From Patescibacteria group bacterium (GTDB lineage: Bacteria > Patescibacteriota > Patescibacteriia > UM-FILTER-42-10): 64,000 nt of DNA. The notes below the pieces were generated by a model that saw only the letters and a program-made list of their open reading frames with translations, was not told where the DNA came from and searched no databases. Made by a program: the position numbers and the translations under genes. The DNA is taken from the NCBI GenBank assembly GCA_041666485.1, contig JBAYGW010000005.1, positions 3,654 to 67,653 on the forward strand, written 5' to 3'. Shown here in pieces: positions 9,882 through 32,413 of this stretch (positions are counted from its first letter, which is position 1; each line of letters starts with the position of its first letter).

Positions 9882-9884
9882 TTC

Positions 9885-9912: not shown

Positions 9913-9919
9913 GTCCCCT
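9898..9919 (-). terminator. Hairpin AGGGG-tcaagt-CCCCT followed by a T-run on the minus strand. Likely terminator of the glycosyltransferase gene. Overlaps the hrcA -35.
   Basis: Seen at 9904-9919. The A7 tract at 9898-9904 on the plus strand gives a U-run on the minus strand. Confidence 0.45.
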
Positions 9920-9970
9920 GCTTTCCCTCGTTTAACTATAAATTAATTCAATCGGAAAGCGGTATTTTCC

Positions 9971-11245
9971 TTACTTTTTCCTTTTCTTATTATCCAAGGA
10001 TTCCATGAAATGCTCTATGATATCAACTGCCCGGTTGCCGTTACGGTATGAACGGATTGCTTTTTTGAATTTTTGCGCGTTCTTACGGTATTTATTGTGT
10101 TTTAATATTTTTTCAATCGCAAACCGGATTTCCGACGGTTTAACATCCAGAGCGTCTTTCAGCAGGGAATTCGGATTGACCCAGGTTGGTTTGATCGGAT
10201 TCAGGTTAATACCGCATTTCAGGCGTTCAATTCTTTTGGCGTTATACCACTGTCCGTAGTTATGCGGAATTACAATGCATGGCTTACCGTATTTCAAAGC
10301 CTGCATAACCGTGCCATGCCCGCCGTGATGAATGACAATATCACTGATCTCACATGCTCTCTGGCCGGGTAAATAGGTTTCCACCCACACATTTTTCGGT
10401 AGTTTGCCGATTTTCCTTTTATTGAAATTCGGTCCGAGACTGACAATCAACTGGTAGTCAGAATCCGTGATTGCTTCAACCGTATTATTGAACATATCCT
10501 GATTATAGATTGTTCCGCCAAGGGAAAGATAAATGATCGGCTTGTTTTTATTCAAGTCCTTAAACCAAGCCGGCTCTTTTTTTTCAAAACCCTTCCAGAG
10601 CAACGGGCCGACAAAATAAGCATCACTCGGCAGCGGAGAAAGCGAATTATATTCCGGAACATCCGCAACCAGTTTGAGATCCGCGTCGTACTGGGCATAA
10701 ACCGAAGCTTTAGCATACTGGTCGGATACTTTATGAAAAGGAACCTTCATCGCCTGGCGCGAAATAAAATTTACAAAAATCCAGCCGATAAAATAGTAAA
10801 ACTGGTTTAAAAGTTTCTTTTCGGAAAGATCCAGACCGTTTCCCTTCCAGAATTCTTTGAGGTAAATTGAATTGGCGATCGTAATCCACGGCACTTTTTT
10901 TATTCGGGTGGAGATACAGGCGGTAGTCCGCTTGTCAGAAATTACAACATCCGGTTTATATTTATCAATAATTGATAAATCTTCCTGCACGTAATTGGAA
11001 AGCAAATCCAAATATTCATTTTTCTGGGCAAATTTATACTCCTCCGCCACGTCAAAACTGGTTGATGGCGCCAGTGTATAAGTTCCGTAACCGGCTTTAC
11101 GCACAAAATTCCGCTTATCCATACTGACGGCAAAGCGGATATGATATTTAGACTTCGGCAACAGATCAGCAATCGCCAAACAACGGGTGATATGCGCCAA
11201 CCCGTCGGAGTGCGGAAGAAACAGAATTTTTTTTCTTTTGATCAT
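9971..11245 (-). CDS. GT1-family (UGT/MGT-like) glycosyltransferase
   Basis: C-terminal nucleotide-sugar binding signature 'HHGGHGTVMQALKYGKPCIVIPH'. 424 aa. Confidence 0.7.
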   Translation of the reverse strand: MIKRKKILFLPHSDGLAHITRCLAIADLLPKSKYHIRFAVSMDKRNFVRKAGYGTYTLAPSTSFDVAEEYKFAQKNEYLDLLSNYVQEDLSIIDKYKPDVVISDKRTTACISTRIKKVPWITIANSIYLKEFWKGNGLDLSEKKLLNQFYYFIGWIFVNFISRQAMKVPFHKVSDQYAKASVYAQYDADLKLVADVPEYNSLSPLPSDAYFVGPLLWKGFEKKEPAWFKDLNKNKPIIYLSLGGTIYNQDMFNNTVEAITDSDYQLIVSLGPNFNKRKIGKLPKNVWVETYLPGQRACEISDIVIHHGGHGTVMQALKYGKPCIVIPHNYGQWYNAKRIERLKCGINLNPIKPTWVNPNSLLKDALDVKPSEIRFAIEKILKHNKYRKNAQKFKKAIRSYRNGNRAVDIIEHFMESLDNKKRKK

Positions 11246-11248: not shown

Positions 11249-11866
11249 TTAATGTGAATAAGGTTTCCCGGATAATTTGGCTATTTCCTGCATAACTTCC
11301 CCGGTGGCCTTGTATAAAAGCTCTTTGGTAATTTCTTGATTATAATATTTGTCTAACGTAATCGGCTTGCCGACTTTAATCTTCGCTCTGCCGATCCCTT
11401 TGAAAAAATCTTTAAAAGACGCCTTAACAGTAGAGCCGCGCGGGCCGTCAATCCCGACCGGCACAACCGGTACCCTGTTAATGATGGCTAGTCTGGCCAC
11501 GCCGGTTTTACCTTTTGCTAATTCTCTATCAGGATTAGCTTTGCCTTCAGGAAATATACCAACAACTTCGCCTCTTTTCAATACCCCGTCTAGTTTTTCC
11601 AGGGCGCCTGCGCGATTTTCCGGATCAATCGGTACCGCGTCAAAAATCCGGTAATTCCCCGTCTTCGCAATAAAATTGATATGCCGGTTGATTGTTTTTA
11701 TTACCGGCGCCAGCAGAATATATTGGTCAAAATAACTGACATGATTTGCGGCAATTATAAAAGCACCGCTCTGCGGAATGTTTTCACAACCCTCGGGCTT
11801 TTTGGTAAGCAAATTAGTAAAAAAATATATCGGTCTGACAAACCAGGAATTAAGTCGTATTTTCAT
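11249..11866 (-). CDS. 1-acyl-sn-glycerol-3-phosphate acyltransferase-like (PlsC family)
   Basis: HX4D motif 'NHVSYFD'. 'FPEG' motif. Confidence 0.7.
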   Translation of the reverse strand: MKIRLNSWFVRPIYFFTNLLTKKPEGCENIPQSGAFIIAANHVSYFDQYILLAPVIKTINRHINFIAKTGNYRIFDAVPIDPENRAGALEKLDGVLKRGEVVGIFPEGKANPDRELAKGKTGVARLAIINRVPVVPVGIDGPRGSTVKASFKDFFKGIGRAKIKVGKPITLDKYYNQEITKELLYKATGEVMQEIAKLSGKPYSH

Positions 11867-14431: not shown

Positions 14432-17400
14432 ATGAGTTTCGTCCATCTCCACACGCACAGCCATTACAGTCTGCTCGACGGACTGCCGAAAATCGGCGAT
14501 TTGGTTGCTAAGGCAAAAAAGCTGAATATGAACGCCCTGGCTTTGACCGACCATGGAGTTTTGTATGGTGCGATTGAATTTTTTCAAAAAGCGACGGAGG
14601 CCGGAATCAAACCGATAATCGGCGTGGAAGCCTATGTGGCAAAAAACGGAATGTACAACAAAAGATCCCGGGTTGATGACCGGCCGTACCATCTGATCCT
14701 GCTGGCCAAAAACCAGACCGGTTATCAGAATCTGCTGTCGCTTGTTACCAAAGCTCATCTGGAAGGATTTTATTACAAACCGCGCATTGACTGGGAGTTA
14801 CTGCAAAAACACTCCAAAGGCTTGATTGCCATGACCGCCTGTTTGCAGGGAGAGATACCGTCCGCGATCAGAAACAGCGATTTGAAACACGCCGAGGAAT
14901 TGATTAAAAACTATGCTTATTTGTTCGGTGAAGGAAATTTTTATCTGGAGCTGCAGCATCATCCCAGTATTGAACAGCAACAGCGTGTGAATGATGCACT
15001 GATTGGTCTGGGTAAAAAATTGAACGTCCCGCTGGTCGCAACCAATGACGTGCATTATCTGGAACCGGCGGATGCCTATCCGCAGGATGTGCTTTTGTGC
15101 ATCCAAATGAAAAGAAAGCAGGAAGAAACGGACCGGATTTCCTATGTCGGGGAAGATTTTTCCTTAAAGACACTAGAACAAATGGCCAGGGATTTCAGCC
15201 ACGTCCCGGAAGCGATAGAAAATACAGTTAAAATTGCCGAGAAGTGCAATTTGGACATTGAGTTCGGTAAAATAATGCTCCCGCATTTTGAAACGCCGAA
15301 GGAGAAAAATGCCGACGAATATTTACGGGAGCTCTGCTACCAAGGGATTAGCAAAAGATTCGGTATAAATATTCCGTCCGACCCGGCAAAACAGAATATT
15401 AATGATGACGAAACAAAAAAGATAATTGACCGCCTGGAATATGAATTAACGGTAATTCACAAAACTGGATTCGCCTCGTATTTTTTGATTGTGCAGGATT
15501 TTGTTAACTGGGCAAAAAGCAACAAAATCGTGGTTGGTCCGGGCAGAGGCTCCGCCGCCGGCAGTATTGTTTCCTATGTATTAAATATAACAAACCTTGA
15601 TCCCCTGCACTACGAGCTGATGTTTGAAAGATTTCTAAATCCCGAAAGAATTTCAATGCCTGATATTGATATTGATTTTGCCGATTCCCGCCGGAACGAA
15701 GTTATTACTTACGTGGAAGAAAAGTACGGCAAGGATCATGTGGCACAGATCATCACTTTCGGAACTATGGCCGCGAGAGCTGCCATCCGCGATGTCGGCA
15801 GAGTACAGGGACTGCCCTACAATTTTTGCGACCAAGTGGCAAAAATGATTCCGATGTTCATGACGCTGGATGATGCACTGAAAGCCGTACCGGAACTGAA
15901 AAGCTTGTACAGCACTGATCCGGAAGCAAAGAAGCTGATTGATACGGCCAAAAAACTGGAAGGTGTCGCCCGACATACCTCCACCCATGCCTGCGGAATT
16001 GTGATTGCTCCGGATCCGCTGGAGATGCATGTACCGACTCAATATGCCAGTCAGGATGACAAAACGATCATCACCCAGTATTCGCTGAACCCGATTGAGG
16101 ATCTGGGTCTTTTGAAAATGGACTTCCTCGGACTGAAGAACCTGACGATTCTGGAGAATGCCTTGGATATTATTTTTAAAACAACCGGTGAAGAAATAGA
16201 CATTGATAAAATTCCGCTGGATGACAAAAATGCTTTTAAGCTGTTCCAGAAGGGCGATACAATCGGTGTATTCCAGCTGGAAAGTTCCGGTATGACCCGT
16301 TACCTGAAGGAACTGAAACCGACTGATCTTGAAGACATCATCGCAATGGTTTCACTGTACCGGCCGGGACCGATGGAACTGATTCCGGATTATATTGCCG
16401 GCAAGCGCGGAAAGAAAAAAATTTCCTATCTCCATCCGAAACTGGAACCAATTTTAAATAAAACGTACGGCATTGCCGTTTATCAGGAACAGATTCTGCA
16501 GATTGCCCGCGATTTGTGCGGTTTCACATTGGGAGAAGCCGACATTCTGCGTAAGGCAATCGGTAAAAAAATCCGTTCTCTGCTGATGGAACAGCGGGAA
16601 AAATTTGTCCAGGGAGCAATCAATAACGGCATCCAGAAGCGCATCGCGGAAAAGCTGTTTGATTTCGTTGAGCCATTCGCCGAATACGGGTTTAACCGGT
16701 CCCATGCCGCCTGTTACGCAATGATCGCCTACCAGACAGCATACCTGAAAGCCAACTGGCCGGCTCAATTTCTGGCCGCACTTTTGACCGCTGACTACGG
16801 CAACACCGACCGGATTGCCGTGGAAGTTGCGGAAACAAAAAAACACGGTATTGAAGTTGTACCGCCGGATGTTAATGAAAGTTTTTCCACTTTTACCGTA
16901 GTTAAAGAAAGCCTGGACACCGAACAGCCGCGCATTCGTTTCGGACTGATGGCTATAAAGAATATCGGCACCAATATTGTCCGCACCATCATTGATGAAA
17001 GAAAAAAAGACGGTAAATATCAAAACCTGGAGGATTTTCTGAGACGCGTGCAAACAAAGGATTTAAACAAAAAGTCGCTGGAGAGTCTGATTAAGTGCGG
17101 AGCCATGGATGATTTCGGTAACCGCCAGACACTCCTGGATAATTTGGAATCAATATTAATCTACGCCAAAAACAGCCAGCGGGAAAGACTGAACGGCCAG
17201 ACCAACCTCTTCGGTATGCTGCCCGCTGAACACAGCCCGAAGCTGCGATTAACCGAATCAGAACCGGTGGATAAAAAAACAAGACTGGGTTGGGAAAAAC
17301 AGCTGCTGGGAATGTACATTTCAGAGCACCCGCTGGATGATTACCGGGAACAGCTGGAAAAATTGACCAGCCCGATCAATACACTAAGTAAAGGACTGAA

Positions 17401-17902
17401 AAGAAATATCACCGTCGGCGGAATAATAACTTCAATCAAAAAAATAATTACAAAAACTAACGAACAGATGCTTTTTGTCACCCTGGAAGATCTGACCGGA
17501 GCGGTAGAAATTATTGTATTCCCTTCCACGCTGAAGGATAATCATGAAATCTGGGCAGAAGATAAAATGCTGCTGGTTACGGGAAAAGTAAATACCAAAG
17601 AAGGCATTCCGAAATTAATCTGCGAAAAAGTAAAAGAGTTTGACGGACAAGCAAATTACGGTAAACCGGAAGTAGCGGAAAAGAAAATTCATGTTGAAAT
17701 TGCTAATTTGGAAAAAGAGACGCTGGACAAATTGAAAATAATTTTTGAAAATAATCCGGGTGAATACAAAGTTTTTCTGGCATGGAAAAATGGCGGCAGC
17801 CCTAAAATTATTTCAACCAAAACCGCAATCAGTATCAGTGATGAAACAGTGGCTGAAATTGAAACTATCGTCGGTAGCGGTGCGGTAAAAATATCAGACT
17901 AG
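14432..17902 (+). CDS. dnaE: DNA polymerase III alpha subunit
   Basis: PHP domain 'FVHLHTHSHYSLLDG'. Polymerase core. OB-fold C-terminus. 1156 aa. Confidence 0.95.
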   Translation: MSFVHLHTHSHYSLLDGLPKIGDLVAKAKKLNMNALALTDHGVLYGAIEFFQKATEAGIKPIIGVEAYVAKNGMYNKRSRVDDRPYHLILLAKNQTGYQNLLSLVTKAHLEGFYYKPRIDWELLQKHSKGLIAMTACLQGEIPSAIRNSDLKHAEELIKNYAYLFGEGNFYLELQHHPSIEQQQRVNDALIGLGKKLNVPLVATNDVHYLEPADAYPQDVLLCIQMKRKQEETDRISYVGEDFSLKTLEQMARDFSHVPEAIENTVKIAEKCNLDIEFGKIMLPHFETPKEKNADEYLRELCYQGISKRFGINIPSDPAKQNINDDETKKIIDRLEYELTVIHKTGFASYFLIVQDFVNWAKSNKIVVGPGRGSAAGSIVSYVLNITNLDPLHYELMFERFLNPERISMPDIDIDFADSRRNEVITYVEEKYGKDHVAQIITFGTMAARAAIRDVGRVQGLPYNFCDQVAKMIPMFMTLDDALKAVPELKSLYSTDPEAKKLIDTAKKLEGVARHTSTHACGIVIAPDPLEMHVPTQYASQDDKTIITQYSLNPIEDLGLLKMDFLGLKNLTILENALDIIFKTTGEEIDIDKIPLDDKNAFKLFQKGDTIGVFQLESSGMTRYLKELKPTDLEDIIAMVSLYRPGPMELIPDYIAGKRGKKKISYLHPKLEPILNKTYGIAVYQEQILQIARDLCGFTLGEADILRKAIGKKIRSLLMEQREKFVQGAINNGIQKRIAEKLFDFVEPFAEYGFNRSHAACYAMIAYQTAYLKANWPAQFLAALLTADYGNTDRIAVEVAETKKHGIEVVPPDVNESFSTFTVVKESLDTEQPRIRFGLMAIKNIGTNIVRTIIDERKKDGKYQNLEDFLRRVQTKDLNKKSLESLIKCGAMDDFGNRQTLLDNLESILIYAKNSQRERLNGQTNLFGMLPAEHSPKLRLTESEPVDKKTRLGWEKQLLGMYISEHPLDDYREQLEKLTSPINTLSKGLKRNITVGGIITSIKKIITKTNEQMLFVTLEDLTGAVEIIVFPSTLKDNHEIWAEDKMLLVTGKVNTKEGIPKLICEKVKEFDGQANYGKPEVAEKKIHVEIANLEKETLDKLKIIFENNPGEYKVFLAWKNGGSPKIISTKTAISISDETVAEIETIVGSGAVKISD

Positions 17903-17971: not shown

Positions 17972-19129
17972 ATGCCGGCAATTAAAAAAGCAAAAATAGG
18001 AAAACGCTATTCAAAAATGGCTGTGCTGTTTCTCGGCGTGGCTTTGGTTGCGGTCGTCGCTATTGTATATGTATCGCTCGCCAAAACAGTAATCACGATT
18101 ACGCCCAGTCCGGAAGCGGTCAGTATTTCCTTTGATTTACCTTTAACCGCCGGAACAAATCAGTCTGAAAGCACGTCATATTCCCTAACAGGGCGGTTAG
18201 TGGAAAAACAGATCAAGGAAACCAAGACATTTACCAATGTAACCAGTCAAAGCAAAGTGCAGGGCAAAGCAGAAGGCGTGGTTACAATCTACAATAATTA
18301 TGGAAGCAACCAGCCGTTAACCGCAACCACCCGTCTGCTTTCGGAAGACAATGTTCTGTTCCGAACCAAAGAAACAGTGACGGTCCCGGCAGGAGGACAG
18401 GTTGAGGTTGCTGTGGAAGCGGATCAGGCTAGCGAGGCGGGCAATATCGGTCCTTCCCGATTTACGATCGTCGCGCTTTGGAAAGGACTGCAGGACAAAA
18501 TTTATGCCGAAAGCTCGGACGCAATGTCTAACGGCCTCCGTGACGTAACAGTCGCAACGCTGGAAAATATCAATGACGCCAAGGAACAATTTGCGATTGA
18601 ATTGAAGGAAAAAGCGACGGAAGAATTATCCCGGGAAGTGGCAATTAATAATTCATCGGAAAAAATTCTGCCACAGGCAGTTACTTACCAAATCTTAGAG
18701 GAAGATGCCGATGTTGAACCAGATACCGAAGTGAATTCATTTGATATAACCAGTAAAATAAATGTCATCGCCGCGGTATTTGATGAAACCGAATTATTCA
18801 ACCACACCAAACAACTGCTCTCTGAGAGAGTACCGGCAAACAAAGAACTGGCCGGCACGGAAATTAGCCTTTTACAATACGAAATAAAATCTTACGACCT
18901 GGAAAATCAAACTGCTGTTTTGGATGTATCGCTAAACGGAACTACCTATGTTAAATTGACCAGTCCGATTTTTGACCGCGATAATCTTTTAAACCGTGAT
19001 AAGCAGGAAATCAAAACATATTTTCTGGATTTTCCGGAAATTCAAAATGTGGATGTGAAATTTTCTCCGTTTTGGGTGTTCCGCTCCCCTTCCTTGAAAG
19101 ATCATATTGAAATCGTAATTACCAAATAG
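17972..19129 (+). CDS. Hypothetical membrane-anchored protein
   Basis: 385 aa. N-terminal TM ('VLFLGVALVAVVAIVYVSLA'). Extracytoplasmic T/S/N-rich region. Confidence 0.4.
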   Translation: MPAIKKAKIGKRYSKMAVLFLGVALVAVVAIVYVSLAKTVITITPSPEAVSISFDLPLTAGTNQSESTSYSLTGRLVEKQIKETKTFTNVTSQSKVQGKAEGVVTIYNNYGSNQPLTATTRLLSEDNVLFRTKETVTVPAGGQVEVAVEADQASEAGNIGPSRFTIVALWKGLQDKIYAESSDAMSNGLRDVTVATLENINDAKEQFAIELKEKATEELSREVAINNSSEKILPQAVTYQILEEDADVEPDTEVNSFDITSKINVIAAVFDETELFNHTKQLLSERVPANKELAGTEISLLQYEIKSYDLENQTAVLDVSLNGTTYVKLTSPIFDRDNLLNRDKQEIKTYFLDFPEIQNVDVKFSPFWVFRSPSLKDHIEIVITK

Positions 19130-19378: not shown

Positions 19379-19867
19379 ATGAAAGAATTATCACATTTCT
19401 GCGTAACTGACGTTTTTCTCGAAAATGAATTTGAGGAAGTTCTGATGTTGAAACGCAGTAAAAAGAAAAAGATCTTGCCAAATTTATACAATGGCCTGGG
19501 AGGTAAGATTGATAATGGTGAAACACCACTTCAGGCAATCCAAAGAGAAGCAAAGGAAGAAGCCGGAGTTATTTCAATGGAAAATTTACAGTACAGAGCG
19601 AATCTGTCTGTAAAAGATAAATTCGGATTTTGGCAGATATATATTTTTTACGGCAATGTCTACAAGAAAAATATAATTATTAAGGAAGTTGACGAAGGGA
19701 CATTGGAGTGGATACCAAAGAATAAATTACTTGACTATCAACTTGTCCCCGATTTGAATAACTGGTTACCAAAGATGTTCGCAAATCCAGAGGCCTTCCA
19801 ATTTGTAAAAATTGAATATGATGATAAATATAATTTAAAAAAAATAATGATTACACCATTAACTTAA
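19379..19867 (+). CDS. NUDIX hydrolase
   Basis: Nudix box 'GGKIDNGETPLQAIQREAKEEAGV' (Gx5Ex7REUxEExGU). Confidence 0.75.
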   Translation: MKELSHFCVTDVFLENEFEEVLMLKRSKKKKILPNLYNGLGGKIDNGETPLQAIQREAKEEAGVISMENLQYRANLSVKDKFGFWQIYIFYGNVYKKNIIIKEVDEGTLEWIPKNKLLDYQLVPDLNNWLPKMFANPEAFQFVKIEYDDKYNLKKIMITPLT

Positions 19868-22740: not shown

Positions 22741-24027
22741 ATGCCGAAATATTACAACCACATCCTGGGCTGCCAGATGAACAAGCTGGACGCGGAAAAG
22801 ATGGATGCCCTACTAGATGCGATGGGTTTCACATCAACCACTAAGGAATCAGAAGCGGATCTGATCAATGTTTTGGCGTGTTCAGTCAGACAGTCCGCTA
22901 TCAACCGGATCGACGGCAAATTGAAAGTTTGGAATAAACTGCGGAAAGAAAAACCGCTAACCACCCTTCTGACCGGATGTGTACTGCCTAAAGACAAAAA
23001 AGGAATCGGCAAGCAGTTTGACATTTTACTGGACATGTCGCAATTGCACACACTCCCCCAGCTTTTGAAAAAGCGCATGCAGGATATTGAGGACATTTTC
23101 CCTGACAGCGACTATTTCAAACTGCCGACCAAACACAAATCTCCTTTTCAGGCATTTGTAACAATCCAAAACGGGTGTAATAAATTTTGCCGGTATTGCG
23201 CCGTCCCCTACACCAGGGGCAGAGAAATTTCGAGACCCGCCGACCAGATTATTGCAGAGGTTAAAGACCTGGTTGAAAATGGATATAAAGAAATTACCCT
23301 GCTCGGCCAAACTGTAAATTCCTATATCAATCCGGAAAAAGGAACAGTTAAATCATTTGCTGATTTGCTTAAAGTATTGGGGCAAATCAAAGGCGATTTC
23401 TGGATTCGTTTTATTTCTCCATACCCGACTGATTTTTCTGATGAATTGATCGACGTTATAGTCAGTGATAAAAAAATATGCCCGCATCTGCACATACCGG
23501 TTCAAGCAGGCAGTAACGACATGCTGAAAAAAATGCTCCGGAAATACACGAGGGAAGAATATTTGGACCTGATCAAAAGGATCCGTAACAAAATGCCGGA
23601 TGTGGCAATAACTACGGATATCATCGTCGGGTTCTGCGATGAAACAGAAGAGAATTTTGCAGACACATTGGACTTGTACGAAAAAGTTAAATTTGATATG
23701 GCATACTTAGCGCAGTATTCCAAAAGACCCGGCACACAAGCGACAAAACTTTTTAAAGACAATATTCCGCAGAAAGTGAAAAAGCAACGGGAAGTGGCTT
23801 TGAATGAAGTGGTAAAGAAATATGCGCTTCTGAATAATCAGAAACTACTGAATAAAACAGTTACAGTCCTGCCGGAGAACATGAGAAAGGGTTTGTTGTT
23901 CGGGAAGACTGATAATAATAAACCAATCCAAATACAACGCGGAACCAAGGATCTGATTGGAAAATTTATTTCCGTCAAAGTCACCAAAGTTAATCCGTGG
24001 AGTTTGGAAGGCAGTTTAAAAAAATAA
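22741..24027 (+). CDS. miaB: tRNA methylthiotransferase MiaB (radical SAM)
   Basis: N-terminal 'GCQMN'. Radical-SAM 'CNKFCRYCAVP'. TRAM-like C-terminus. Confidence 0.85.
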   Translation: MPKYYNHILGCQMNKLDAEKMDALLDAMGFTSTTKESEADLINVLACSVRQSAINRIDGKLKVWNKLRKEKPLTTLLTGCVLPKDKKGIGKQFDILLDMSQLHTLPQLLKKRMQDIEDIFPDSDYFKLPTKHKSPFQAFVTIQNGCNKFCRYCAVPYTRGREISRPADQIIAEVKDLVENGYKEITLLGQTVNSYINPEKGTVKSFADLLKVLGQIKGDFWIRFISPYPTDFSDELIDVIVSDKKICPHLHIPVQAGSNDMLKKMLRKYTREEYLDLIKRIRNKMPDVAITTDIIVGFCDETEENFADTLDLYEKVKFDMAYLAQYSKRPGTQATKLFKDNIPQKVKKQREVALNEVVKKYALLNNQKLLNKTVTVLPENMRKGLLFGKTDNNKPIQIQRGTKDLIGKFISVKVTKVNPWSLEGSLKK

Positions 24028-24051
24028 GCCTTGTCCAAGCGGGAGCAAAGC

Positions 24052-24570
24052 TTAATGATTGAAAAGTGAGAACAGGCGGTATGCCGCGAGAGCTGTGGTC
24101 AGAACACCGACCATGTTCCCAGTGAAAATGAGCAGATACGCGCGCGGCAGTTTCAGAAGCCGCGCTGTGATGACGGATGCCGTGACCGCGTACGGCAGAA
24201 GCGGGATGGCGACCAGGATGAAGATCACGACGCTCGGGTACCGGCTGTTCACGATGTAGCTTGTGAGCATGTCGCGGAAACGTTGCAGACCGGCGTTGAT
24301 TGCGAAAAGCCGCAGCTCCATCTGGTGTGAACGGCCATTGGCGCCGTTCTGCCGGAGGACGCGTCTGGTGAGCGCAATCGTCTGCTCGCCCAGCCACAGC
24401 AGCATCTCGGGGAAGTAGAACATCAGCGACATCCCGATGCTCGAGCCGATGAGCAGTGTGAGGAACCCCTTCCAGAAGCCATACCCGGCCAGAAAGACAG
24501 CAAACGCCGTCACCTCTTCCTGCCAGATGGCCGACCAAACGAAGAATAGCTCGTCCAACAAGAAAACCAC
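24052..24570 (-). CDS. Hypothetical membrane protein encoded in a GC-rich island (possibly DedA/VTT-like)
   Basis: 172 aa, 4-5 TM segments. Codon usage and GC content differ sharply from the neighbours. The family call is weak. Confidence 0.35.
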   Translation of the reverse strand: MVFLLDELFFVWSAIWQEEVTAFAVFLAGYGFWKGFLTLLIGSSIGMSLMFYFPEMLLWLGEQTIALTRRVLRQNGANGRSHQMELRLFAINAGLQRFRDMLTSYIVNSRYPSVVIFILVAIPLLPYAVTASVITARLLKLPRAYLLIFTGNMVGVLTTALAAYRLFSLFNH

Positions 24571-24692
24571 GTGTTGACCTCCTGTCAGGGTGAATCCAAA
24601 GGCAGGAACGAAGTATCATAATTTAACATAAACTTATTTGTAGGTCAACGTTTAAAAACAGTAACCATTGCGAGGAGTCCCGTTAGTAATCT

Positions 24693-24764
24693 GTCATGCT
24701 GAACTAGTTTCAGCATCTCCGGTTCCATAGCGATGAGGGATTCTGAAACGAGTTCAGAATGACA
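24693..24764. repeat. 72-bp palindromic MITE/REP-like element, copy A
   Basis: GTCATGCTGAAC...GTTCAGAATGAC terminal inverted repeats with two internal hairpins. Near-identical arms to copy B at 36978-37047. Confidence 0.6.
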
Positions 24765-24826
24765 ATTGATAGCACTCGGGGGGGGCATCCCGCTCTTGTC
24801 TAAACAATCGTATCGATAACAAACAA

Positions 24827-25705
24827 ATGAAAAAACTAATCGTAATCCTAGGTCCAACCGCATCCGGAAAAACCGGCATGTCTTTAGCATTGGCAAAAAA
24901 ATTTAAAGGCTTCGTTATCTCCGCAGACTCGCGTCAGATTTACCGCGGAATGGATATCGGCACCGGAAAATTGACCAGGGATAAATGGCAAGGAATCACC
25001 CACCGCATGATTGATATTATTGATCCCGATCAGGAATACAGTCTGGCGCAGTTTCAAAAAACAGTATTTGCCATTATTAATGAAGAGCAAAACTTATTGC
25101 CGATCATGGTCGGCGGAACCGGACTTTATATTCAGTCGATCGTGGATAATCTGGATATTCCCAAAGGAGGAATGGATAAAGTTTTGCGCAAGGAATTGGA
25201 TGCAAAAACACCTGAGGAACTTTTCAAAATGCTGATTCAGCTGGACTATAAATCCGCCCAGGAAATAGATATTAATAATAAAAGAAGGCTGATCCGGGCG
25301 ATAGAAGTTTTCAAAGTTTCCGGCGAAAAGTATTCGGAAAAAAAAGGAAAAAACAGTCCCCTAGTGCAGGCACTGCAAATCGGCATTAAATTATCCAGAG
25401 AAGAAATGTACCGGCGCATTGACCGGCGGGTGGATGAAATGATCCAAGCAGGCCTTTTGGATGAAGTAAAAACGCTTGGTGAAAAGTTCGGCTTTGATAT
25501 CCCCTCCATGTCCGCCATCGGCTACCAACAACTGTCCGCGTATTTTAAAAAGGAAATTTCATTAGCTGAAGCGGTGGCCCAAATCAAGAACGACTCACAT
25601 CATTATGCCAAAAGGCAGATGACCTGGTTTAAGCGCGACCATCGGATCAAATGGATAACATCCGTGGATGAAGCGGAAGAGCTGGTTGCTGATTTTCTGG
25701 GGTAA
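24827..25705 (+). CDS. miaA: tRNA dimethylallyltransferase
   Basis: P-loop 'GPTASGKT'. IPPT family layout. 292 aa. Confidence 0.9.
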   Translation: MKKLIVILGPTASGKTGMSLALAKKFKGFVISADSRQIYRGMDIGTGKLTRDKWQGITHRMIDIIDPDQEYSLAQFQKTVFAIINEEQNLLPIMVGGTGLYIQSIVDNLDIPKGGMDKVLRKELDAKTPEELFKMLIQLDYKSAQEIDINNKRRLIRAIEVFKVSGEKYSEKKGKNSPLVQALQIGIKLSREEMYRRIDRRVDEMIQAGLLDEVKTLGEKFGFDIPSMSAIGYQQLSAYFKKEISLAEAVAQIKNDSHHYAKRQMTWFKRDHRIKWITSVDEAEELVADFLG

Positions 25706-25710
25706 TTGCC
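25657..25710. repeat. Direct repeat copy 1 (3' end of miaA) of a ~41-54 bp duplication
   Basis: 'gaagcggaagagctggttgctgattttctggggtaattgcc' recurs at 26190-26230 with 3 mismatches. Confidence 0.7.
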
Positions 25711-25874
25711 TAATCTTCTTCATATAACAAAACGGTGATAAGATACAAGATATGCGATATGTTCGCATAATAACAAGTTTGCGTACAGACACACCTTATC
25801 CTACAATGCTTACCCTCATTCCCCAATTACCAGTTACTAGTTACTAACTACTTAATCAATATAATACTGCCATT

Positions 25875-26165
25875 ATGAAATTTGACGAGCCGCCAAAACC
25901 AGAAGGATTCAGCAAATATCAGATGGATATCATGCACGAAATTGAGCATGGCCGAGCTTCAAGCGTTGAAGAAGCGGTTAAAATAGTGGAACTGGCCATG
26001 TTTGAGCAACGCATAGAACAATTTTCCGAAGACGATTTAAAACGCGATGCGGACGGATCCTGGCATACTTTTGAACAAAAAATCAAGGCGGTTTTCCCCG
26101 AACTACCGGAAGATCGGCAAAGAGCTATGAAAGCGGCCGTCACCATGCATTTATGCGGAATGTGA
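25875..26165 (+). CDS. Small acidic hypothetical protein, flanked by the miaA-3' direct repeats
   Basis: 96-aa ORF. No motif recognised. Confidence 0.35.
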   Translation: MKFDEPPKPEGFSKYQMDIMHEIEHGRASSVEEAVKIVELAMFEQRIEQFSEDDLKRDADGSWHTFEQKIKAVFPELPEDRQRAMKAAVTMHLCGM

Positions 26166-26176
26166 TTTAGCGGCTG

Positions 26177-26230
26177 TTAAATCGGTGCAAGAAGCGGAAG
26201 AGCTGGTTGCTGGTTTTTTGGGGTAATTCC
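26177..26230. repeat. Direct repeat copy 2: an in-frame remnant of the miaA 3' end ('..EAEELVAGFLG*')
   Basis: Matches 25657-25710. Would encode the same last 10 aa as MiaA with one substitution. Confidence 0.7.
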
Positions 26231-26266
26231 CCTAGTGTCAAAGCATATGTGTAGCTACGGGAAGGC

Positions 26267-26374
26267 ATCAGTACCCATTGCGAATCCTGATTCGCCAGCT
26301 GGCGAACGAAGGGTGAAGCAACCCCGATATATCAGCACCCATTGCGAACCTTGTGCAACAAGGTGTGGCAATCC
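26267..26374. repeat. Two tandem ~45-58-nt units with conserved flanks (TCAGYACCCATTGCGAAYC ... GGTGNRGCAAYCCC) and different perfect palindromes at the core
   Basis: Unit 1 core is TTCGCCAGCTGGCGAA (26290-26305). Unit 2 core is CCTTGTgcaACAAGG (26348-26362). Confidence 0.5.
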
Positions 26375-26561
26375 CGTTCCTTTTGACTTAAGTGTATCCA
26401 TTCCGGGGGTCTTCTCCTGTCTTTTGCTTTCATCCTTATGTGTGGCCCCGGTCCCAGATTTTGGGGTTTTCTCGTTGTTCTTCTTAATAAAACAAAATGG
26501 TGGTAAAATACAGGATATAAAGAAAATAAGTGTTTATGAATTAATCTAATTATATTTTCAC

Positions 26562-27632
26562 ATGAAAAATGGTAAGCATAAGAATAATGTAGTAGAGCTT
26601 TTTTCAGGTTGCGGTGGTTTTTCTTGTGGTTTTGAAAAAGCGGGATTTAATATTTTTTTAGGAGTCGATAATGATCAACCATCTTTAGATACATTTAAAA
26701 AAAATCATCAAAATTCAGTAGTCATGAATTTAGATTTATCACGAAATAATGCAATCGATAAAATTATTAAAGTTACTAATGGAACGAAGGTTGATATTAT
26801 AATTGCTGGTCCTCCATGCCAGGGTTTCTCTTTAACTGGAACCAGACTAAAAGATGATAAAAGGAATAAATTATTTAATACCGTTTTTGATTTAGCAGAA
26901 CATTTAAAACCAAAAGCAATCATAATAGAAAACGTTCCAGGCCTCGAAACACTTTATGGAGGTGTAGCAAAAAAAAGGATTTTAGAAAGATATGATGAGT
27001 TAGGTTATGAAGTAACTAGCCATGTACTTTTTGCACCAGATTTTGGTGTACCACAGATTAGAAAAAGAATTGTTTTTGTAGGAATATTAAAAAAAATTGG
27101 TAAAAAATTCATTTTTTCAAAACCATTGCTTAATAAAGACAATTATGTAAATTGTGAAGAGGCAATTGGTGACTTGCCAAAACGAGAAAAAGAGTTTGGG
27201 AATGAAGTTGATAAGTATATAAAGGCACCAAAAACTAAATACCAAAAAGAGATGAGGGGAAAAACAATAAAGTTATTTAATCACGTAAGCACAAAACATT
27301 CACCCCATGTTATTGATGTTATCTCCCAAGTACCGGAAGGTGGCAACTACAAAAACTTACCGAAAGGTGTTGGAGAAACAAGAAAATTCAACGAGGCATG
27401 GACACGTTATCATAGTAAAAAACCATCAAAAACAATAGATACGGGTCATAGAAATCATTTTCATTACAAATATAATCGTGTGCCTACTGTTAGAGAAAAC
27501 GCACGTTTACAGTCTTTTCCTGATCATTTTATATTCACTGGAAGCAAAACTCAACAATATAGGCAGGTTGGTAACGCTGTACCTCCACTATTAGCATATT
27601 CTATTGCAAAAGAATTATTGAAGTATATTTAA
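26562..27632 (+). CDS. DNA (cytosine-5)-methyltransferase, copy 1
   Basis: Motif I 'LFSGCGGFSCGF', motif IV 'GPPCQGFS', motif VI 'ENVPGL', motif X 'GNAVPP'. Very AT-rich gene. Confidence 0.9.
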   Translation: MKNGKHKNNVVELFSGCGGFSCGFEKAGFNIFLGVDNDQPSLDTFKKNHQNSVVMNLDLSRNNAIDKIIKVTNGTKVDIIIAGPPCQGFSLTGTRLKDDKRNKLFNTVFDLAEHLKPKAIIIENVPGLETLYGGVAKKRILERYDELGYEVTSHVLFAPDFGVPQIRKRIVFVGILKKIGKKFIFSKPLLNKDNYVNCEEAIGDLPKREKEFGNEVDKYIKAPKTKYQKEMRGKTIKLFNHVSTKHSPHVIDVISQVPEGGNYKNLPKGVGETRKFNEAWTRYHSKKPSKTIDTGHRNHFHYKYNRVPTVRENARLQSFPDHFIFTGSKTQQYRQVGNAVPPLLAYSIAKELLKYI

Positions 27633-27636
27633 CTCT

Positions 27637-28866
27637 ATGTCTAGAAAAAGAAAAGTTAATGTAATAGACTTATTTGCAGGTTGCGGTGGATTAACTGATG
27701 GTTTTGAGTATAAAAATAATTACAATATCTTAGCTACTGTTGAATGGGATAAACAATGCTGCAATACGTTGCAAAATAGATTATCTAAAAAATGGGGTTA
27801 TAAAAATGCGGCAGATTTGGTATTAAACTTTGATATTCAAAGAATAAAAGAATTACTAACTGGTTGGAAAAATGATGTAAAATACGGAAATAATGTCGGC
27901 CTTAAAAAACTAATAGGGAAAAATAAAGTTGATGTAATAGTAGGCGGACCACCATGTCAGGCATACTCTGTGGCCGGAAGAATTAGAGATAAAAATGGGA
28001 TGCACACAGACTATAGGAATTTTCTTTTTGAAAGTTACATTGCTTTAGTTAAAGAATTTAAACCTAAATTCTTTATTTTTGAAAACGTGCCTGGAATATT
28101 GAGTGCAAAACCTGGTGGAATCTCAATTATTGACAGAATAAGAGAATCATTTGGTAAAATAGGATACACCATTGCTGATGACTTAAGAAAAATAGCTATT
28201 GTTGACAGCTCTGATTTTGGTGTTCCTCAAATTAGAAAAAGAGTCATTATTTTAGGTGTAAACAAAAACGTTTATCGTAATAATGCCAACGAAATTATAA
28301 GGGATTTCTACTTCAATATTTTACCTTCCTTGAAATTTAAAAATAAGATGACTGTTAAAGATGCCTTGAATGACTTACCTAAATTCTTTCCATTGAATGA
28401 AAATAAACATAATAATCAATCCCACTCAATTTCCAAAAAATCAAATATATATAATCACATACCTAGATTTCATAGTAAAAGAGATATTGAAATATTTAAA
28501 ATACTTACTAATGATATTAAAAAAAGAGAAAATAAGTATACTTCTATTGCAGAGCTAAAAAAATTGTACTTCAAATTTACTGGAAAAAATTCTAATATCC
28601 ACAAATATCATGTTTTAAAAGAAGATGAACCAAGTAACACTATACCTGCTCACTTATATAAAGACGGTTTAAGACATATTCACCCTGACCCAAAACAAGC
28701 AAGAAGTATAACAGTAAGGGAGGCAGCTAGATTACAAAGCTTTGAAGATAATTTTGAATTTTTAGGAACCATGGGAGATCAATATAAAATGATTGGAAAT
28801 GCCGTCCCCCCAAAATTAGCATATGCTATTTCTGAAGCATTGTATAATTTAATTGAAAAATATTAA
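27637..28866 (+). CDS. DNA (cytosine-5)-methyltransferase, copy 2 (larger target-recognition region)
   Basis: Motif I 'LFAGCGGLTDGF', motif IV 'GGPPCQAYS', motif VI 'ENVPGIL', motif X 'GNAVPP'. Confidence 0.9.
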   Translation: MSRKRKVNVIDLFAGCGGLTDGFEYKNNYNILATVEWDKQCCNTLQNRLSKKWGYKNAADLVLNFDIQRIKELLTGWKNDVKYGNNVGLKKLIGKNKVDVIVGGPPCQAYSVAGRIRDKNGMHTDYRNFLFESYIALVKEFKPKFFIFENVPGILSAKPGGISIIDRIRESFGKIGYTIADDLRKIAIVDSSDFGVPQIRKRVIILGVNKNVYRNNANEIIRDFYFNILPSLKFKNKMTVKDALNDLPKFFPLNENKHNNQSHSISKKSNIYNHIPRFHSKRDIEIFKILTNDIKKRENKYTSIAELKKLYFKFTGKNSNIHKYHVLKEDEPSNTIPAHLYKDGLRHIHPDPKQARSITVREAARLQSFEDNFEFLGTMGDQYKMIGNAVPPKLAYAISEALYNLIEKY

Positions 28867-28883
28867 GCAATAATTTATATTTT

Positions 28884-29870
28884 ATGCCAAAATTTTACAT
28901 AAAAAAATTAACCCCCCAAGAACTTGGATATCGTTCAGGTAGACCAAAAGGTGGCGGTAGATATTTTTATGTTTCAAAGGATTGTTTAGAATTTTTCCCC
29001 CCTTTATCTGAAAACATACTCAATGATTCAGTTTTAATACCTATAATTCCTCCATTCTCGAATAATAAAGTATATAGTAATTTTGTTTATCATAATGATA
29101 AACATGCAATTGAAAACGGTACGAGGGATGAATATAGACTCTATCTTAATAAACAGATTGATCCTAATGGTGAATATTTTAGCATTGACGACATTGTTGT
29201 TTTTGAAAAACAAGAAGAAAAAATTGATCAAGAAATTATTCCAACATATTTTTTAAACAGATTTTTAGCGAGTGCACCAGAATACAATATCTTAAACAAT
29301 ATAATTGAAAAATCTGAAATCAGAGGTGGACATGCACTATATGATGGTGAGCTTTCTGTTTCAACACAAACAACTAAATTTTCTGCAGATAATCGAGTAA
29401 TAATTCCTGAAGAAGTTGAAAAAGAAGTAAAAGATAAACTTACTGAAAACGAAGAAGAAATGGGTGCACACTTATTTAATTCAATAAGTTTTAGGGATTT
29501 TGTCTTAAATAGTTATGGTTATAAATGTGCAATCACAAATAAATCAATCACATGGAAAAATCTTAATAATTTAGAGGCTGCACACATTAAACCGAAATCA
29601 CACAGAGGAAGTTTTCTGCCATGTAATGGAATAGCCTTGTCAAGAGATATGCACTGGGCATTTGATAAAGGATTTATCTCCATAAACGACGATTATACAG
29701 TTTTAGTACACAAGGACGTGAAAGAAACAATGCTTAAAGAAATAGACGGAAAGAAAATTAACTTACCAATAGAAGATTTCTTTAAACCAAACAAAGAGTA
29801 TCTTAAACATCACAGAGAAAATGTATTCGGTCTATTTCATCATTCAGGATCGTTAAGGTCAATTAATTAA
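28884..29870 (+). CDS. Putative restriction endonuclease, HNH (His-Me finger) family, cognate to the adjacent methyltransferases
   Basis: C-terminal 'YKCAITN...LEAAHIKPKSH...NGIALSRDMHWAFDKG' HNH signature. N-terminal region resembles a DNA-binding module. Operonic with the two MTases. Confidence 0.6.
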   Translation: MPKFYIKKLTPQELGYRSGRPKGGGRYFYVSKDCLEFFPPLSENILNDSVLIPIIPPFSNNKVYSNFVYHNDKHAIENGTRDEYRLYLNKQIDPNGEYFSIDDIVVFEKQEEKIDQEIIPTYFLNRFLASAPEYNILNNIIEKSEIRGGHALYDGELSVSTQTTKFSADNRVIIPEEVEKEVKDKLTENEEEMGAHLFNSISFRDFVLNSYGYKCAITNKSITWKNLNNLEAAHIKPKSHRGSFLPCNGIALSRDMHWAFDKGFISINDDYTVLVHKDVKETMLKEIDGKKINLPIEDFFKPNKEYLKHHRENVFGLFHHSGSLRSIN

Positions 29871-30122
29871 ATCAACAAATGTATTTTTAGATTAGGCCGA
29901 ACAGATGCGGATAAATACCCATTACAATACCACTCATGACAAAAATACAAAAAATTGTGGAATATTTCAAAATAAGCAATATGTTCAAATAACAGCAAGT
30001 TATCAGACATAATTTTTATATAATTTTGTTAATTTCCCACGTAACTTGTAGAATTCAGAAATAATGAATAAAGTTTCATTATCATTCAACCAAAACAATA
30101 TTCACAAATAACCATAGATACT

Positions 30123-31406
30123 ATGAAAACACGTTTTCAAACAATGTCTATAAATCGTCTCTTTAAGTATCGTGAAAGAATCGATTTAGAACCGTCTTTT
30201 CAGCGTGAGAAAGTTTGGTCCAGTGACAAGCAACAACACTTCCTAGACACACTTCTAAAAGGTTGGGGAGTGCCAAAATTATACCTTCAACTAGATGAAA
30301 GCCCATCGGGTAAAAGAAACTACATCTGTATTGATGGGAAGCAACGCCTTACATCAGTTTTTTCTTTTTTAGAAAATCGTATACCTCTTAGTAAAAAATA
30401 CTCAGGTGAATTTGGTGGCAAATATTATCTTGATTTACCAGATAAAATTCAGAATAAATTTGATGACTATAAACTTCATATCGAGGAAGTAACTGATCCG
30501 GAAGAAAAGGAAATGAGCGAGCTTTTTAAGCGGTTGCAGCTTGGCTCACCACTCAACTCGGGAGAGAAGCTAATGGCTATAGTTGGAGATATGCACAATC
30601 TTGTAAAGAAATATTCCGTCCATCCATTTTTTAAAAAGAAAGTGGCATTACCGAATACTAGATATGCTCATTTTACTGTATGTGCTCAGGTTTGTTGCTT
30701 AGAGACTGTTGGGATTACAGATATCCCACTTCGCAAATTAGAATTGTTTTTTTCGAGCCACGAGGATTTTCGTAGCAGTGGTTTTGAACTTAAAACAAAG
30801 ATACAAAAAATTAAAGAAGTGCTAGATTATCTCAACAAAATGTTCGCCGCAGAATCACCTGACCTTCGCAATAGAGCAAGTGTAGTATCTATTTATCTAC
30901 TTGTATCTGATTTGATAGATAAGGGAAATATTAAAGGGAAGGAAAATAAATTAAGACGGTTCTTTGCAACATTTACAAAAGAATTACGAAATGAAATTGA
31001 AAAAGGTGTTGGGGCAAAGGACGCACAATTTATAAACTATCAGTCAGCGATTATTCAGGGTGCTGATGATCAAAAGTCTATCAAACTTAGGAGAGAAATA
31101 TTATTGAATAAACTTTATAGTTACGATCCTTTTTTCTATCGAATTATGCATCCACAACTTTCTCCAATTGAAAAATTTAGTAATTTATATGGGAACGTGG
31201 AAGATCGTCTCGGAAACTCGCAGCGAGTAGATGATTGGCTGGTAAGTAAAAAACCGAGAATCAAAACCGTGACTTGTCGAGGTAAAAAAGAGACGTTTAT
31301 AACACATATTAGACATTGCATCCACCATAATAAACATGGTAAATACACAAAATTAGATCTTCGTAATGCAACAAACTTATTAAATCAAATAGGCACTCCA
31401 ACCTAA
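30123..31406 (+). CDS. DUF262 (ParB/Srx-like) domain protein with a His-rich C-terminus. GmrSD-like candidate type IV restriction enzyme.
   Basis: DUF262 blocks 'EPSFQREKVWS', 'LLKGWGVPKLYL', 'IDGKQRLTS'. C-terminal 'HIRHCIHHNKHG...NATNLL' may be a degenerate His-Me finger. Confidence 0.6.
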   Translation: MKTRFQTMSINRLFKYRERIDLEPSFQREKVWSSDKQQHFLDTLLKGWGVPKLYLQLDESPSGKRNYICIDGKQRLTSVFSFLENRIPLSKKYSGEFGGKYYLDLPDKIQNKFDDYKLHIEEVTDPEEKEMSELFKRLQLGSPLNSGEKLMAIVGDMHNLVKKYSVHPFFKKKVALPNTRYAHFTVCAQVCCLETVGITDIPLRKLELFFSSHEDFRSSGFELKTKIQKIKEVLDYLNKMFAAESPDLRNRASVVSIYLLVSDLIDKGNIKGKENKLRRFFATFTKELRNEIEKGVGAKDAQFINYQSAIIQGADDQKSIKLRREILLNKLYSYDPFFYRIMHPQLSPIEKFSNLYGNVEDRLGNSQRVDDWLVSKKPRIKTVTCRGKKETFITHIRHCIHHNKHGKYTKLDLRNATNLLNQIGTPT

Positions 31407-31423
31407 ATACTATGATTAATATA

Positions 31424-31463
31424 CAAAAAAACAAGCCCTGAAATATTCAGAGCCTGTTTTGTT
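31424..31463. terminator. Bidirectional terminator between the convergent DUF262 and carbamoyltransferase genes
   Basis: A7 - GCCCTGAA-atat-TTCAGAGC (one mismatch) - TTTTGTT. Confidence 0.5.
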
Positions 31464-31477
31464 ATATGATTATTATC

Positions 31478-32413
31478 CTATTTCCCCATCAGCCACAGAA
31501 TGATGGCTTTTTGAATATGCATCCTGTTTTCCGCCTGATCGAATATTATGGAGTTTGGATGATCAATAGCGTCACGGGATATCTCATAACCCACGTGGCA
31601 GGGCATACAGTGCATAATTCCGGCCTTGGGGCTGTATTTATCCACGATTCCGGCATTGAGCTGGAACGGCTTGAATTCTTCAATTCTCTTGTCATATTCC
31701 GCTTTAAACTCCGGTTTGACCTTGCCGTCTTCGAAAAATTCCATATCCATCCAGGTGTCCGTATGCACGTAATCCGTATCTTTCATTGCCTCTTCAATAT
31801 CCACTGTTTTATGCACCTTCCCTGTTGCTTCTGCCATTTGGTTCAGCTCTTCATCAACACTGATTTCGTGTACTTTCGGTGCTGCCAGATAGATATCTAT
31901 TCCCAGTTTGGTGCAGACCAGCTTCAAAGTATTGCTGACGTTGTTTTCGATTCCGAGCCAGGTTACTTTTTTAATATTTTCAATTCCCCCGCTGTGTTCC
32001 ACCATCGTCAAAAGATCCCCGAGTGACTGGCATGGATGGTATTTTTCGGAGCAGGCGTCGATTACCGGAATTTTATTGAGGGATGCGGCAATATTGACAT
32101 CATTAAAAGATTTTGCCCGGAACATTAATACGTCGCCGAAACGCATTACGGCCTGAATCTCGTCTTTGTAATCAGTCAGGGCAAATTGCGATGTCCGACT
32201 GTCCAGAAATATTGCATGTCCGCCCAGCTGAGTCATGCCGGCTTCAAAAGAAAGCCTGGTGCGGGTGGATGTCTTCTGGAAAAGCATGATTAATGTTTTG
32301 TTTTTCAAAACATCTCCGTATCTTTCCGGATTAGCTTTGATCTCCTGCGCTTTGCGGATAATCTCCAGAATATCCTCTTTGGAATAGTCTTTTAGTGTAA
32401 GACAGTGTTTCAT
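31478..32413 (-). CDS. Ornithine-carbamoyltransferase-like transcarbamylase (specificity uncertain)
   Basis: 'STRTR', 'HPCQ' and C-terminal 'HCMPCH' (OTCase HCLP-like). Distinct from the bona fide pyrB at 38506. Confidence 0.65.
   Translation of the reverse strand: MKHCLTLKDYSKEDILEIIRKAQEIKANPERYGDVLKNKTLIMLFQKTSTRTRLSFEAGMTQLGGHAIFLDSRTSQFALTDYKDEIQAVMRFGDVLMFRAKSFNDVNIAASLNKIPVIDACSEKYHPCQSLGDLLTMVEHSGGIENIKKVTWLGIENNVSNTLKLVCTKLGIDIYLAAPKVHEISVDEELNQMAEATGKVHKTVDIEEAMKDTDYVHTDTWMDMEFFEDGKVKPEFKAEYDKRIEEFKPFQLNAGIVDKYSPKAGIMHCMPCHVGYEISRDAIDHPNSIIFDQAENRMHIQKAIILWLMGK

Follow-up and report, generated by a model that had tools for sequence, protein, structure and literature searches.

Why does the end of one housekeeping gene occur twice within a short distance on the same strand? 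The question is raised by a 64-kb stretch of DNA (the window, W) from a Patescibacterium, in which the 3′ end of miaA, the gene of tRNA dimethylallyltransferase, recurs about 520 bp downstream, behind a small open reading frame (ORF) of 96 codons, ORF96. An initial annotation had taken the two copies for the attachment sites (attL/attR) of an element that integrated into the 3′ end of miaA, supplied a replacement terminus and lost its recombinase. Comparison with related genomes leads us to favour, with somewhat better than even confidence, another origin: the repeat would be a recombination scar, in which two related but differently organised haplotypes of a defence-gene hotspot were united by one illegitimate, microhomology-mediated join, that is, by homology-facilitated illegitimate recombination or "insertion with long target duplication". 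The features on which the argument turns are the following.

24827–25705, + strand: miaA, intact, 292 aa (Pfam IPPT, E-value 2.8e-76)
25660–25710, + strand: repeat copy 1, the functional miaA terminus (final 46 nt including the stop codon, plus 5 nt downstream)
25875–26165, + strand: ORF96, a conserved 96-aa four-helix protein found in Patescibacteria only (homologues; AlphaFold2 (AF2) model)
26166–26183, + strand: conserved ORF96 3′ flank TTTAGCGGCTGTTAAATC, common to the relatives L110 and L001 and ending in the junction microhomology GTTA/AATC (about 26176–26183)
26181–26231, + strand: repeat copy 2, the dead (fossil) miaA terminus, in frame KSVQEAEELVAGFLG followed by a stop codon at 26224–26226

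The direct repeat is 51 nt long, with 45 of 51 positions identical (88%) and a spacing of 521 nt, so that 470 bp carrying ORF96 lie between the copies; the 41 bp with three mismatches described originally fit 25670–25710. An exact core of 22 nt, GAAGCGGAAGAGCTGGTTGCTG, is found at 25670–25691 and 26191–26212. Even with up to three mismatches allowed, the core has only these two sites in the 64 kb (none expected, 100 shuffles), i.e. it is no common motif there. The Smith-Waterman local score of the pair is 79, compared to 16.8 ± 2.9 and a maximum of 34 in shuffled sequences, and one stretch of 38 nt is 94.7% identical. The six differences are concentrated at both ends of the repeat, as expected for two alleles, and the similarity stops about 6 nt past the stop codon.

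Copy 2 reads in frame as ...AAVKSVQEAEELVAGFLG before its stop. Because this frame has no usable start and is closed by an in-frame stop 31 codons upstream, copy 2 is a dead terminus, as first proposed; on the same grounds it is excluded as part of a real ORF or as a frameshift extension of ORF96. The C-terminus of the live gene, ...VADFLG, is the ancestral one and is common to the relatives with 92% and 83% MiaA identity. Over 57 anchored nucleotides the fossil has 10 mismatches to the window's own live allele, 14 to that of L110 and 15 to that of L111, and it combines characters found in different lineages. The live end and the L110 allele differ at 9 of the 57 positions, similar to the distance between fossil and live end.

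A downstream copy of the gene's own terminus occurs in none of 78 other Patescibacteria miaA loci, which rules out a general trait of this group, and no second miaA terminus was detected in L110, L001 or L111. To judge from these alignments, the fossil is confined to this genome.

The left edge of the fossil shows how the two parts meet. After the ORF96 stop, the window, L110 and L001 have TTTAGYGGYTGTTA(YA)AATC in common. Beyond AATC, L110 and L001 continue together for 4 more nucleotides (AAAA in both), while the window turns to the miaA-like GGTGCAAGAAGCGG. The junction GTTA.AATC resembles the miaA alleles GGGTTAAAAGC and GGGTTACATCC at that position, and the edge cuts into the conserved ORF96 flank, where no element has a defined end. 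The alignment points to a derived, window-specific breakpoint within a microhomology of 4–8 nt.

ORF96 itself is a real gene, as had been assumed. Its homologues form 13 clusters, all of them from Patescibacteria; 36 columns are invariant among nine homologues, and the family has the C-terminal motif MHLCG. The AF2 model consists of four helices with a mean predicted local distance difference test score (pLDDT) of 86.5. No protein family, PDB sequence or fold matched, and the protein was rejected as an excisionase (Xis) or recombinase on this basis. The view of ORF96 as simple inserted cargo had to be given up, since the same interval holds it in L110 (96.9% identical) and in syntenic position in L001, neither with a significant duplication. 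ORF96 is a conserved Patescibacteria gene, and nothing ties it to recombination. More distant family members stand in unrelated gene contexts, and a metagenome scan with ORF96 brought up no further close lineage.

Downstream of the fossil stop lies a non-coding element of about 150 nt, here called E, in the following arrangement.

26232–26328, + strand: post-stop spacer (TTCCCCT..., compare TCCCCT... in L111) and an extra 5′ half-copy of E at 26265–26328, CAGTACCCATTGCGA-hairpin-GAAGCAACCCCG
26329–26485, + strand: full-length E with the E5 hairpin, a CCGGGG...CCCCGG stem enclosing a CU-rich stretch, and terminator-like hairpins at 26404–26419 and 26450–26468

An AT-rich island had been thought to begin just past copy 2. 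The GC content falls only from about 26500, and the roughly 260 nt at 26232–26490 combine normal GC with this conserved element. The genuine miaA stop of L111 has TCCCCT... behind it and E about 20 nt further on. The fossil, TTCCCCT and E of the window are colinear with this arrangement (26188–26231 corresponds to L111 10841–10884 with 82% identity, and 26329–26492 to L111 10899–11066 with 72%). Because E follows the real miaA stop in L111, the fossil is best understood as a displaced miaA end with its native downstream DNA still attached. The search for an empty site in relatives thereby gave a divided result: L111, where miaA runs directly into E, is empty for the ORF96 segment, while L110 and L001 have ORF96 and no significant second copy.

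Full-length E was found in W, L096, L110 (two copies) and L111/L112 (two copies), and within the hotspot only (116 loci, 1.48 Mb). Homologues of the window's element are L111 10899–11066, directly after the real miaA, L096 543–699 and L110 12277–12423; the copies delimited in the relatives are L111 10901–11051 and 16693–16598, L110 12277–12423 and 19680–19524, and L096 543–699. E always stands behind a gene end and is co-oriented with that gene; in L110 and L111 the cargo lies between inverted copies. A genome-wide dispersed repeat was dismissed, since every full-length copy lay at the hotspot, first in 228 kb and later in 1.48 Mb.

The interval between the convergent core genes miaA (+) and argF (−) is a defence-gene hotspot. 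In the window, the gene order is miaB (+), a VTT-like membrane gene (−), miaA (+), ORF96 (+), the fossil, the non-coding element, two Dcm methylases, an HNH type II nuclease, a DUF262/GmrSD_N gene, argF (−) and the pyr genes; neither a tRNA nor an Rfam family was found at the locus. The cargo and the right flank are as follows.

26490–31420, + strand: low-GC defence cargo (GC 0.28–0.36, compared to about 0.43; Pfam, PADLOC)
26562–27632, + strand: Dcm methyltransferase (Pfam)
27637–28866, + strand: second Dcm methyltransferase (Pfam)
28884–29870, + strand: HNH type II restriction endonuclease (REase; Pfam, PADLOC)
30123–31406, + strand: DUF262/GmrSD_N gene, NsnA/PD-T4-2_A-like (Pfam, PADLOC)
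31421–32413, − strand: conserved right flank with argF, the ornithine carbamoyltransferase gene, at 31478–32413 and its terminator at 31421–31477 (Pfam)

With MiaA and ORF96 as handles, we found five other versions of this interval among the relatives, which are labelled L001, L085, L096, L110, L111, L112, L113, L114 and L115. Their contents, with MiaA identity where available, are given below (h, a 108-aa gene; r, a RidA region).

L110 (MiaA 92.5%): h, ORF96, r, E, an HpaII-type restriction-modification (R-M) system with Vsr, four unknown genes, Fic
L001 (MiaA 85%): patatin-like gene, ORF96
L111/L112 (MiaA 83%): E, MazG-like gene, PIN gene, reverse transcriptase of the DRT (defence-associated reverse transcriptase) type, r, h
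L096 (short contig without miaA and argF): h, ORF96, E, a different methylase
L115 (outgroup, MiaA 70%): one small gene, 747 nt in total, nearly empty

Wherever both flanks are on the contig (W, L110, L001, L111 and L115), the interval is bounded by miaA and argF. The cargo is different in each lineage and includes no mobility genes. Homology of the window to L001, L110 and L111 restarts at 31416–31428. PADLOC matches of the cargo across the lineages comprise NsnA/PD-T4-2_A, HNH REase, DRT reverse transcriptases, SoFic and REase_II.

Duplicated gene ends recur at the opposite flank of the hotspot. L110 has a direct duplication of 176 nt (83%) of the argF terminator and 3′ end, 18043–18217 and 19618–19785, which brackets Fic. 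In L111 a duplication of the same gene end measures 87 nt (91%, 16715–16800 and 18132–18217) and brackets r-h; here the argF fossil keeps a copy of E on its island side. These duplications are the same kind of scar as the miaA fossil of the window. Lengths as different as 176 and 87 nt are better explained by recombination that is illegitimate or driven by homology than by an integrase acting site-specifically on a fixed core. The order of the small genes varies as well: h-ORF96-r is found next to miaA in L110 (10912–12219) and r-h next to argF in L111 (16782–17791), in the same orientation. Such a circular permutation may point to circular or tandem intermediates.

The trees of the flank genes are in conflict. 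The closest relative of the window is L110 for MiaA (92.5%), L001 for DnaE (95.5%) and L111 for ArgF (98.1%); MiaB also belongs to the genes with conflicting trees. Sample ERZ27249449 is the source of W, L085 and L112. Both observations are consistent with recombination between lineages.

A recombinase, presumed lost by the initial annotation, left no visible mark. Pfam revealed no integrase, resolvase, transposase or remnant thereof in the genes of the interval or in 20 further ORFs of the window, nor did precomputed Pfam assignments within ±10 kb, and the non-coding gaps of 330 and 250 nt are too short for a recombinase gene. The repeats had also been considered as one boundary of a larger integrated island; no third copy is present at the right end of the R-M/DUF262 island (31407–31420). 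IMG/VR lacks the 22-nt miaA core, and phage and plasmid records gave no match to the segment of 921 nt.

How could such a scar have formed? The parents would be co-occurring sister lineages. One parent would have carried miaA, a promoter, ORF96 and its flank, and the other miaA, element E, defence cargo and argF, an arrangement still seen in L111. The illegitimate join would connect the ORF96 3′ flank of the first with the miaA of the second at a site some 46 nt short of its stop codon; the rest of the exchange would be ordinary homologous recombination within a conserved flank. The product would hold an intact miaA, ORF96 and a dead miaA terminus with its native E and cargo. Seen from one parent, a 521-bp ORF96 segment would have been inserted at the miaA end with a 51-bp target duplication; seen from the other, a block of E plus cargo would have been imported with a stub of the donor miaA.

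Several points weigh against this reading. Neither parental haplotype was observed: no known genome shows miaA, E, the R-M cargo of the window and argF in this order, nor does any known genome show miaA-P-ORF96 (P, the promoter region) lacking both the fossil and the patatin gene. The junction is documented in a single metagenome assembly, the microhomology is short, with exact limits that hinge on a parental allele not seen so far, and the recombinase scan was limited to the 64-kb window, so that an enzyme encoded elsewhere in the genome would escape. Finally, the orthologous spot of L001 bears a weak fossil-like resemblance of about equal length (p = 0.13; empirical p about 0.03–0.06, as 132/2080 to 57/2080 windows score equally). 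If real, this trace would make the duplication older, and its good preservation here would need another explanation. An ancient duplication is the reading that builds on it. The ORF96 module would then have arrived at the end of miaA in an ancestor common to W, L110 and L001, and the fossil would have decayed or been lost in the relatives and been kept in the window lineage by gene conversion or constraint. The miaA-(P)-ORF96 adjacency in W and L001, the position of ORF96 after miaA in L110 as well, and the fossil's closest match to the window's own allele are in line with such a history. Against this, the L001 trace is not significant, L110 as the closest miaA relative has no fossil, a repeat of 51 nt would, once it had drifted, soon be too dissimilar for conversion, the mismatches are concentrated at the two ends as for two alleles, and no function of the fossil is evident. 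We give this history little credence.

Site-specific integration, in which an element targeting the miaA 3′ end supplied the replacement terminus and its recombinase was lost or acted in trans, appears unlikely to us, if somewhat less so than the ancient duplication. Direct repeats with an identical 22-nt core over a gene 3′ end that is restored are what such an event leaves, the 521-bp segment behaves as a miaA-end insert relative to L111, the permutation of h-ORF96-r and r-h would suit circular intermediates, and full-length E copies form inverted brackets of the cargo in L110 and L111. This has to be set against the missing recombinase or remnant wherever examined, and against repeats that enclose just 470 bp with a conserved gene and no recognisable Xis or recombinase. 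Further, the left end of the fossil lies inside the conserved ORF96 flank, the argF duplications reveal no fixed core, the far end of the island has no repeat, and the core is neither in viral, phage and plasmid collections nor duplicated at the 78 other miaA loci. What survives of the original proposal is that a miaA terminus was displaced by insertion or joining of DNA at a hotspot; for attachment sites or an integrase we see no evidence. An in-situ tandem duplication of the miaA end and ORF96, by slippage or unequal crossing-over at GTTA.A.ATC with later loss of the second promoter and ORF96, would use the microhomology that occurs in miaA and after ORF96, about 520 bp apart, and would yield exactly the observed left junction. 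We regard it as very improbable: nothing promoter- or ORF96-like follows the fossil stop, where the similarity ends after about 6 nt, the fossil runs into a spacer and E that match the region downstream of the native miaA of L111, and its allele differs from copy 1 at 6 of 51 positions. Least credible of all is a chimeric contig of two co-occurring strains. Three related lineages do occur in sample ERZ27249449 and the junction is known from one assembly only, but a de Bruijn contig built with k = 141 is not bridgeable by a microhomology of 4–8 nt or a repeat of 22–38 nt, and similar scars are present in the 1.18-Mb JGI contig L110 as well as in L111 and L112, two separate records of which one is from JGI and one from ENA. 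The illegitimate join between two hotspot haplotypes is the reading we retain.

Element E deserves a closer description. It is built in the order CAGTAACCATTGCGA, hairpin, GAAGCAATCCCG ... TTCCGGGGG, CU-rich stretch, CCCCGG, terminator, and the hairpin is bordered by CCATTGCGA...GCAATCCCG. Its conservation is 72–85%, while other intergenic DNA is unalignable. In the consensus fold of five sequences, which is suggestive only, a hairpin would show compensatory changes, a CU-rich loop would be closed by an invariant GC stem of 6 bp, and a terminator would form the third part. The folding stability of the whole 325-nt E region is not above that of shuffled sequences (z = −0.88). A known RNA family was discarded, Rfam giving no match at the gathering threshold or at an E-value of up to 5, and a match to CCATTGCGA at 16341 lies inside dnaE and is due to chance. 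It is conceivable, although we consider it doubtful, that E is more than a terminator and a working part of a cassette-exchange site of this Patescibacteria clade, either free of an integrase or served by a recombinase in trans. E might then act as a homology handle or as a recognition site for an unknown recombinase or nuclease, and the duplicated miaA and argF termini would be the footprints of its mis-joins.

E-like sequence, CAGTAACCATTGCGAGGAGTCCCGTTAG...CGGGGGGGGCATCCCG, is also present upstream of miaA (24659–24800), interrupted there by a palindromic insert of 71 nt (24693–24763, GTCATGCTGAAC...GTTCAGAATGAC) that resembles a miniature inverted-repeat transposable element (MITE). L001 has another insert, GTCAT...GTGAC, at the same spot (about 9790–9985), and L111 has the window's version at 17789–17902 (88.6% over 114 nt), but adjoining argF. 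Further upstream, the VTT-like membrane gene (24052–24570, − strand) stands out by a GC content of 0.57 compared to about 0.42 in its neighbours (region 24000–24500) and is overlapped by a long ORF in another frame (23990–24619).

The stretch between miaA and ORF96 is divided into two parts.

25706–25732, + strand: miaA 3′ flank, 27 nt, orthologous to L110 (homology up to 25732, which corresponds to L110 10919; blastn)
25733–25874, + strand: putative ORF96 promoter and leader with the extended −10-like motif CGGTGATAAGAT, a palindrome and a 7-mer array, in part common to L001

Two signals reported for this stretch are real. The 7-bp inverted repeat TATGCGA-tatgt-TCGCATA is located at 25751–25769, and the repeat array exists, but comprises merely 2.9 copies of TTACTAG (25827–25846). 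In the ORF96 leader of L001 (about 11826–11837) the palindrome is kept with other sequence, GCGATATATCGC in place of TATGCGA-tatgt-TCGCATA, and it may serve as an operator or 5′ hairpin. The extended −10-like motif at 25729–25746 (AAAACGGTGATAAGATAC) upstream of ORF96 returns at 26494–26511 (AAAATGGTGGTAAAATAC) upstream of the first methylase; the two are probably the promoters of the ORF96 unit and the methylase unit.

The closest relatives of the window's methylase-methylase-REase cassette (66–69% REase identity) are found near an inovirus-like prophage or a serine recombinase and never near miaA. An R-M island that brought the miaA fragment as its own end was rejected for this reason; the finding says nothing on the fossil. 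The 250-nt AT-rich gap between the cassette and the DUF262 gene is occupied by Vsr in relatives of the cassette. In the DUF262/GmrSD_N protein the usual DUF1524 nuclease half was not found by Pfam; PADLOC assigns NsnA (E-value 5.9e-26) and also PD-T4-2_A.

L001 represents a second, different insertion at the miaA end. Its MiaA C-terminus is replaced and extended (10860–10906), reading ...VNNFLTNKFSFHGII before the stop instead of ...VADFLG, and the AT-rich patatin-like gene abuts this altered end with a stop/start overlap, ATGA. Directly upstream of miaA, a small GIY-YIG nuclease gene is present in L110 (9619–10014, overlapping the miaA start), L113 (9526–9822) and L114 (3575–3841) and absent from the window; homing-endonuclease-like and free-standing, it could promote breaks and recombination at the locus. 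The window also contains PilC-like (T2SSF) and PilB-like (T2SSE) genes at 58681–61565, and a type IV pilus could provide a DNA-uptake route for recombination between co-occurring lineages.

The locus offers a base-level record of defence-gene reshuffling in uncultivated Patescibacteria (Candidate Phyla Radiation, CPR), whose gene mobility is poorly known. The slot between the convergent housekeeping genes is fixed, and its scars would record illegitimate joins of co-existing relatives without an integrase. Element E and ORF96 are concrete, testable leads. The locus also calls for caution, as a duplicated gene end is not automatically an attachment site. The scar is a further example of a known, ordinary recombination footprint and no proof of an integrase-driven mobile element.

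Integrase-mediated genomic islands insert at the 3′ ends of genes for tRNA, transfer-messenger RNA (tmRNA) or proteins. For such islands, Williams 2002 is cited in the work on Pseudomonas aeruginosa hotspots discussed below (PMC10250203). Like them, the window has a direct repeat of a gene 3′ end and a replacement terminus that restores the gene. In contrast, neither an integrase nor a repeat bounding the large island is present, the break falls within an unrelated conserved flank, and the duplication lengths vary at the same hotspot.

The likeness to insertion with long target duplication (Nobusato/Kobayashi; Furuta et al. 2010, PMC2853133) is closer. These cases have direct repeats of more than 30 bp that are unique in the genome, lack mobility genes, are matched by a related genome with one copy and no insert, and come mostly from naturally competent species; in Haemophilus influenzae, repeats of 46 bp overlap a gene end. 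Likewise, the window has a repeat above this length around a short insert (51 nt, unique with two copies), an overlap with a gene 3′ end, no mobility genes, and a relative with a single copy and no insert, L111, whose miaA terminus is contiguous with E. The published repeats enclose R and M genes, whereas those of the window enclose ORF96, with the R-M genes beyond copy 2, and are more diverged (88% identity) than most.

In comparison, the effector-immunity arrays of the Vibrio cholerae type VI secretion system (T6SS) grow by sequential displacement through homology-facilitated illegitimate recombination (Kirchberger et al. 2017, PMC5361080), where the 'C-terminal displacement' of rhs genes is cited as a related precedent. 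There, too, a conserved upstream gene is the homologous anchor and the join at the other end is illegitimate, the older downstream part survives as an orphan in a more distal position, events of this kind recur at the locus, trees are mosaic and an integrase is missing. The orphan of the window is a gene terminus of 51 nt with a non-coding element and not an immunity gene, the locus serves anti-phage functions and not inter-bacterial weapons, and the host is an uncultivated Patescibacterium.

As a location for defence genes, the interval resembles the core defence hotspots cDHS1/2 of P. aeruginosa (Johnson et al. 2023, PMC10250203), with constant core flanks, highly variable defence cargo, deviant GC content and no single class of mobile element. 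It differs from them in its far smaller size (0.7–9 kb), its miaA and argF flanks, and in having conserved border elements E of about 150 nt together with visible scars of duplicated flanks.

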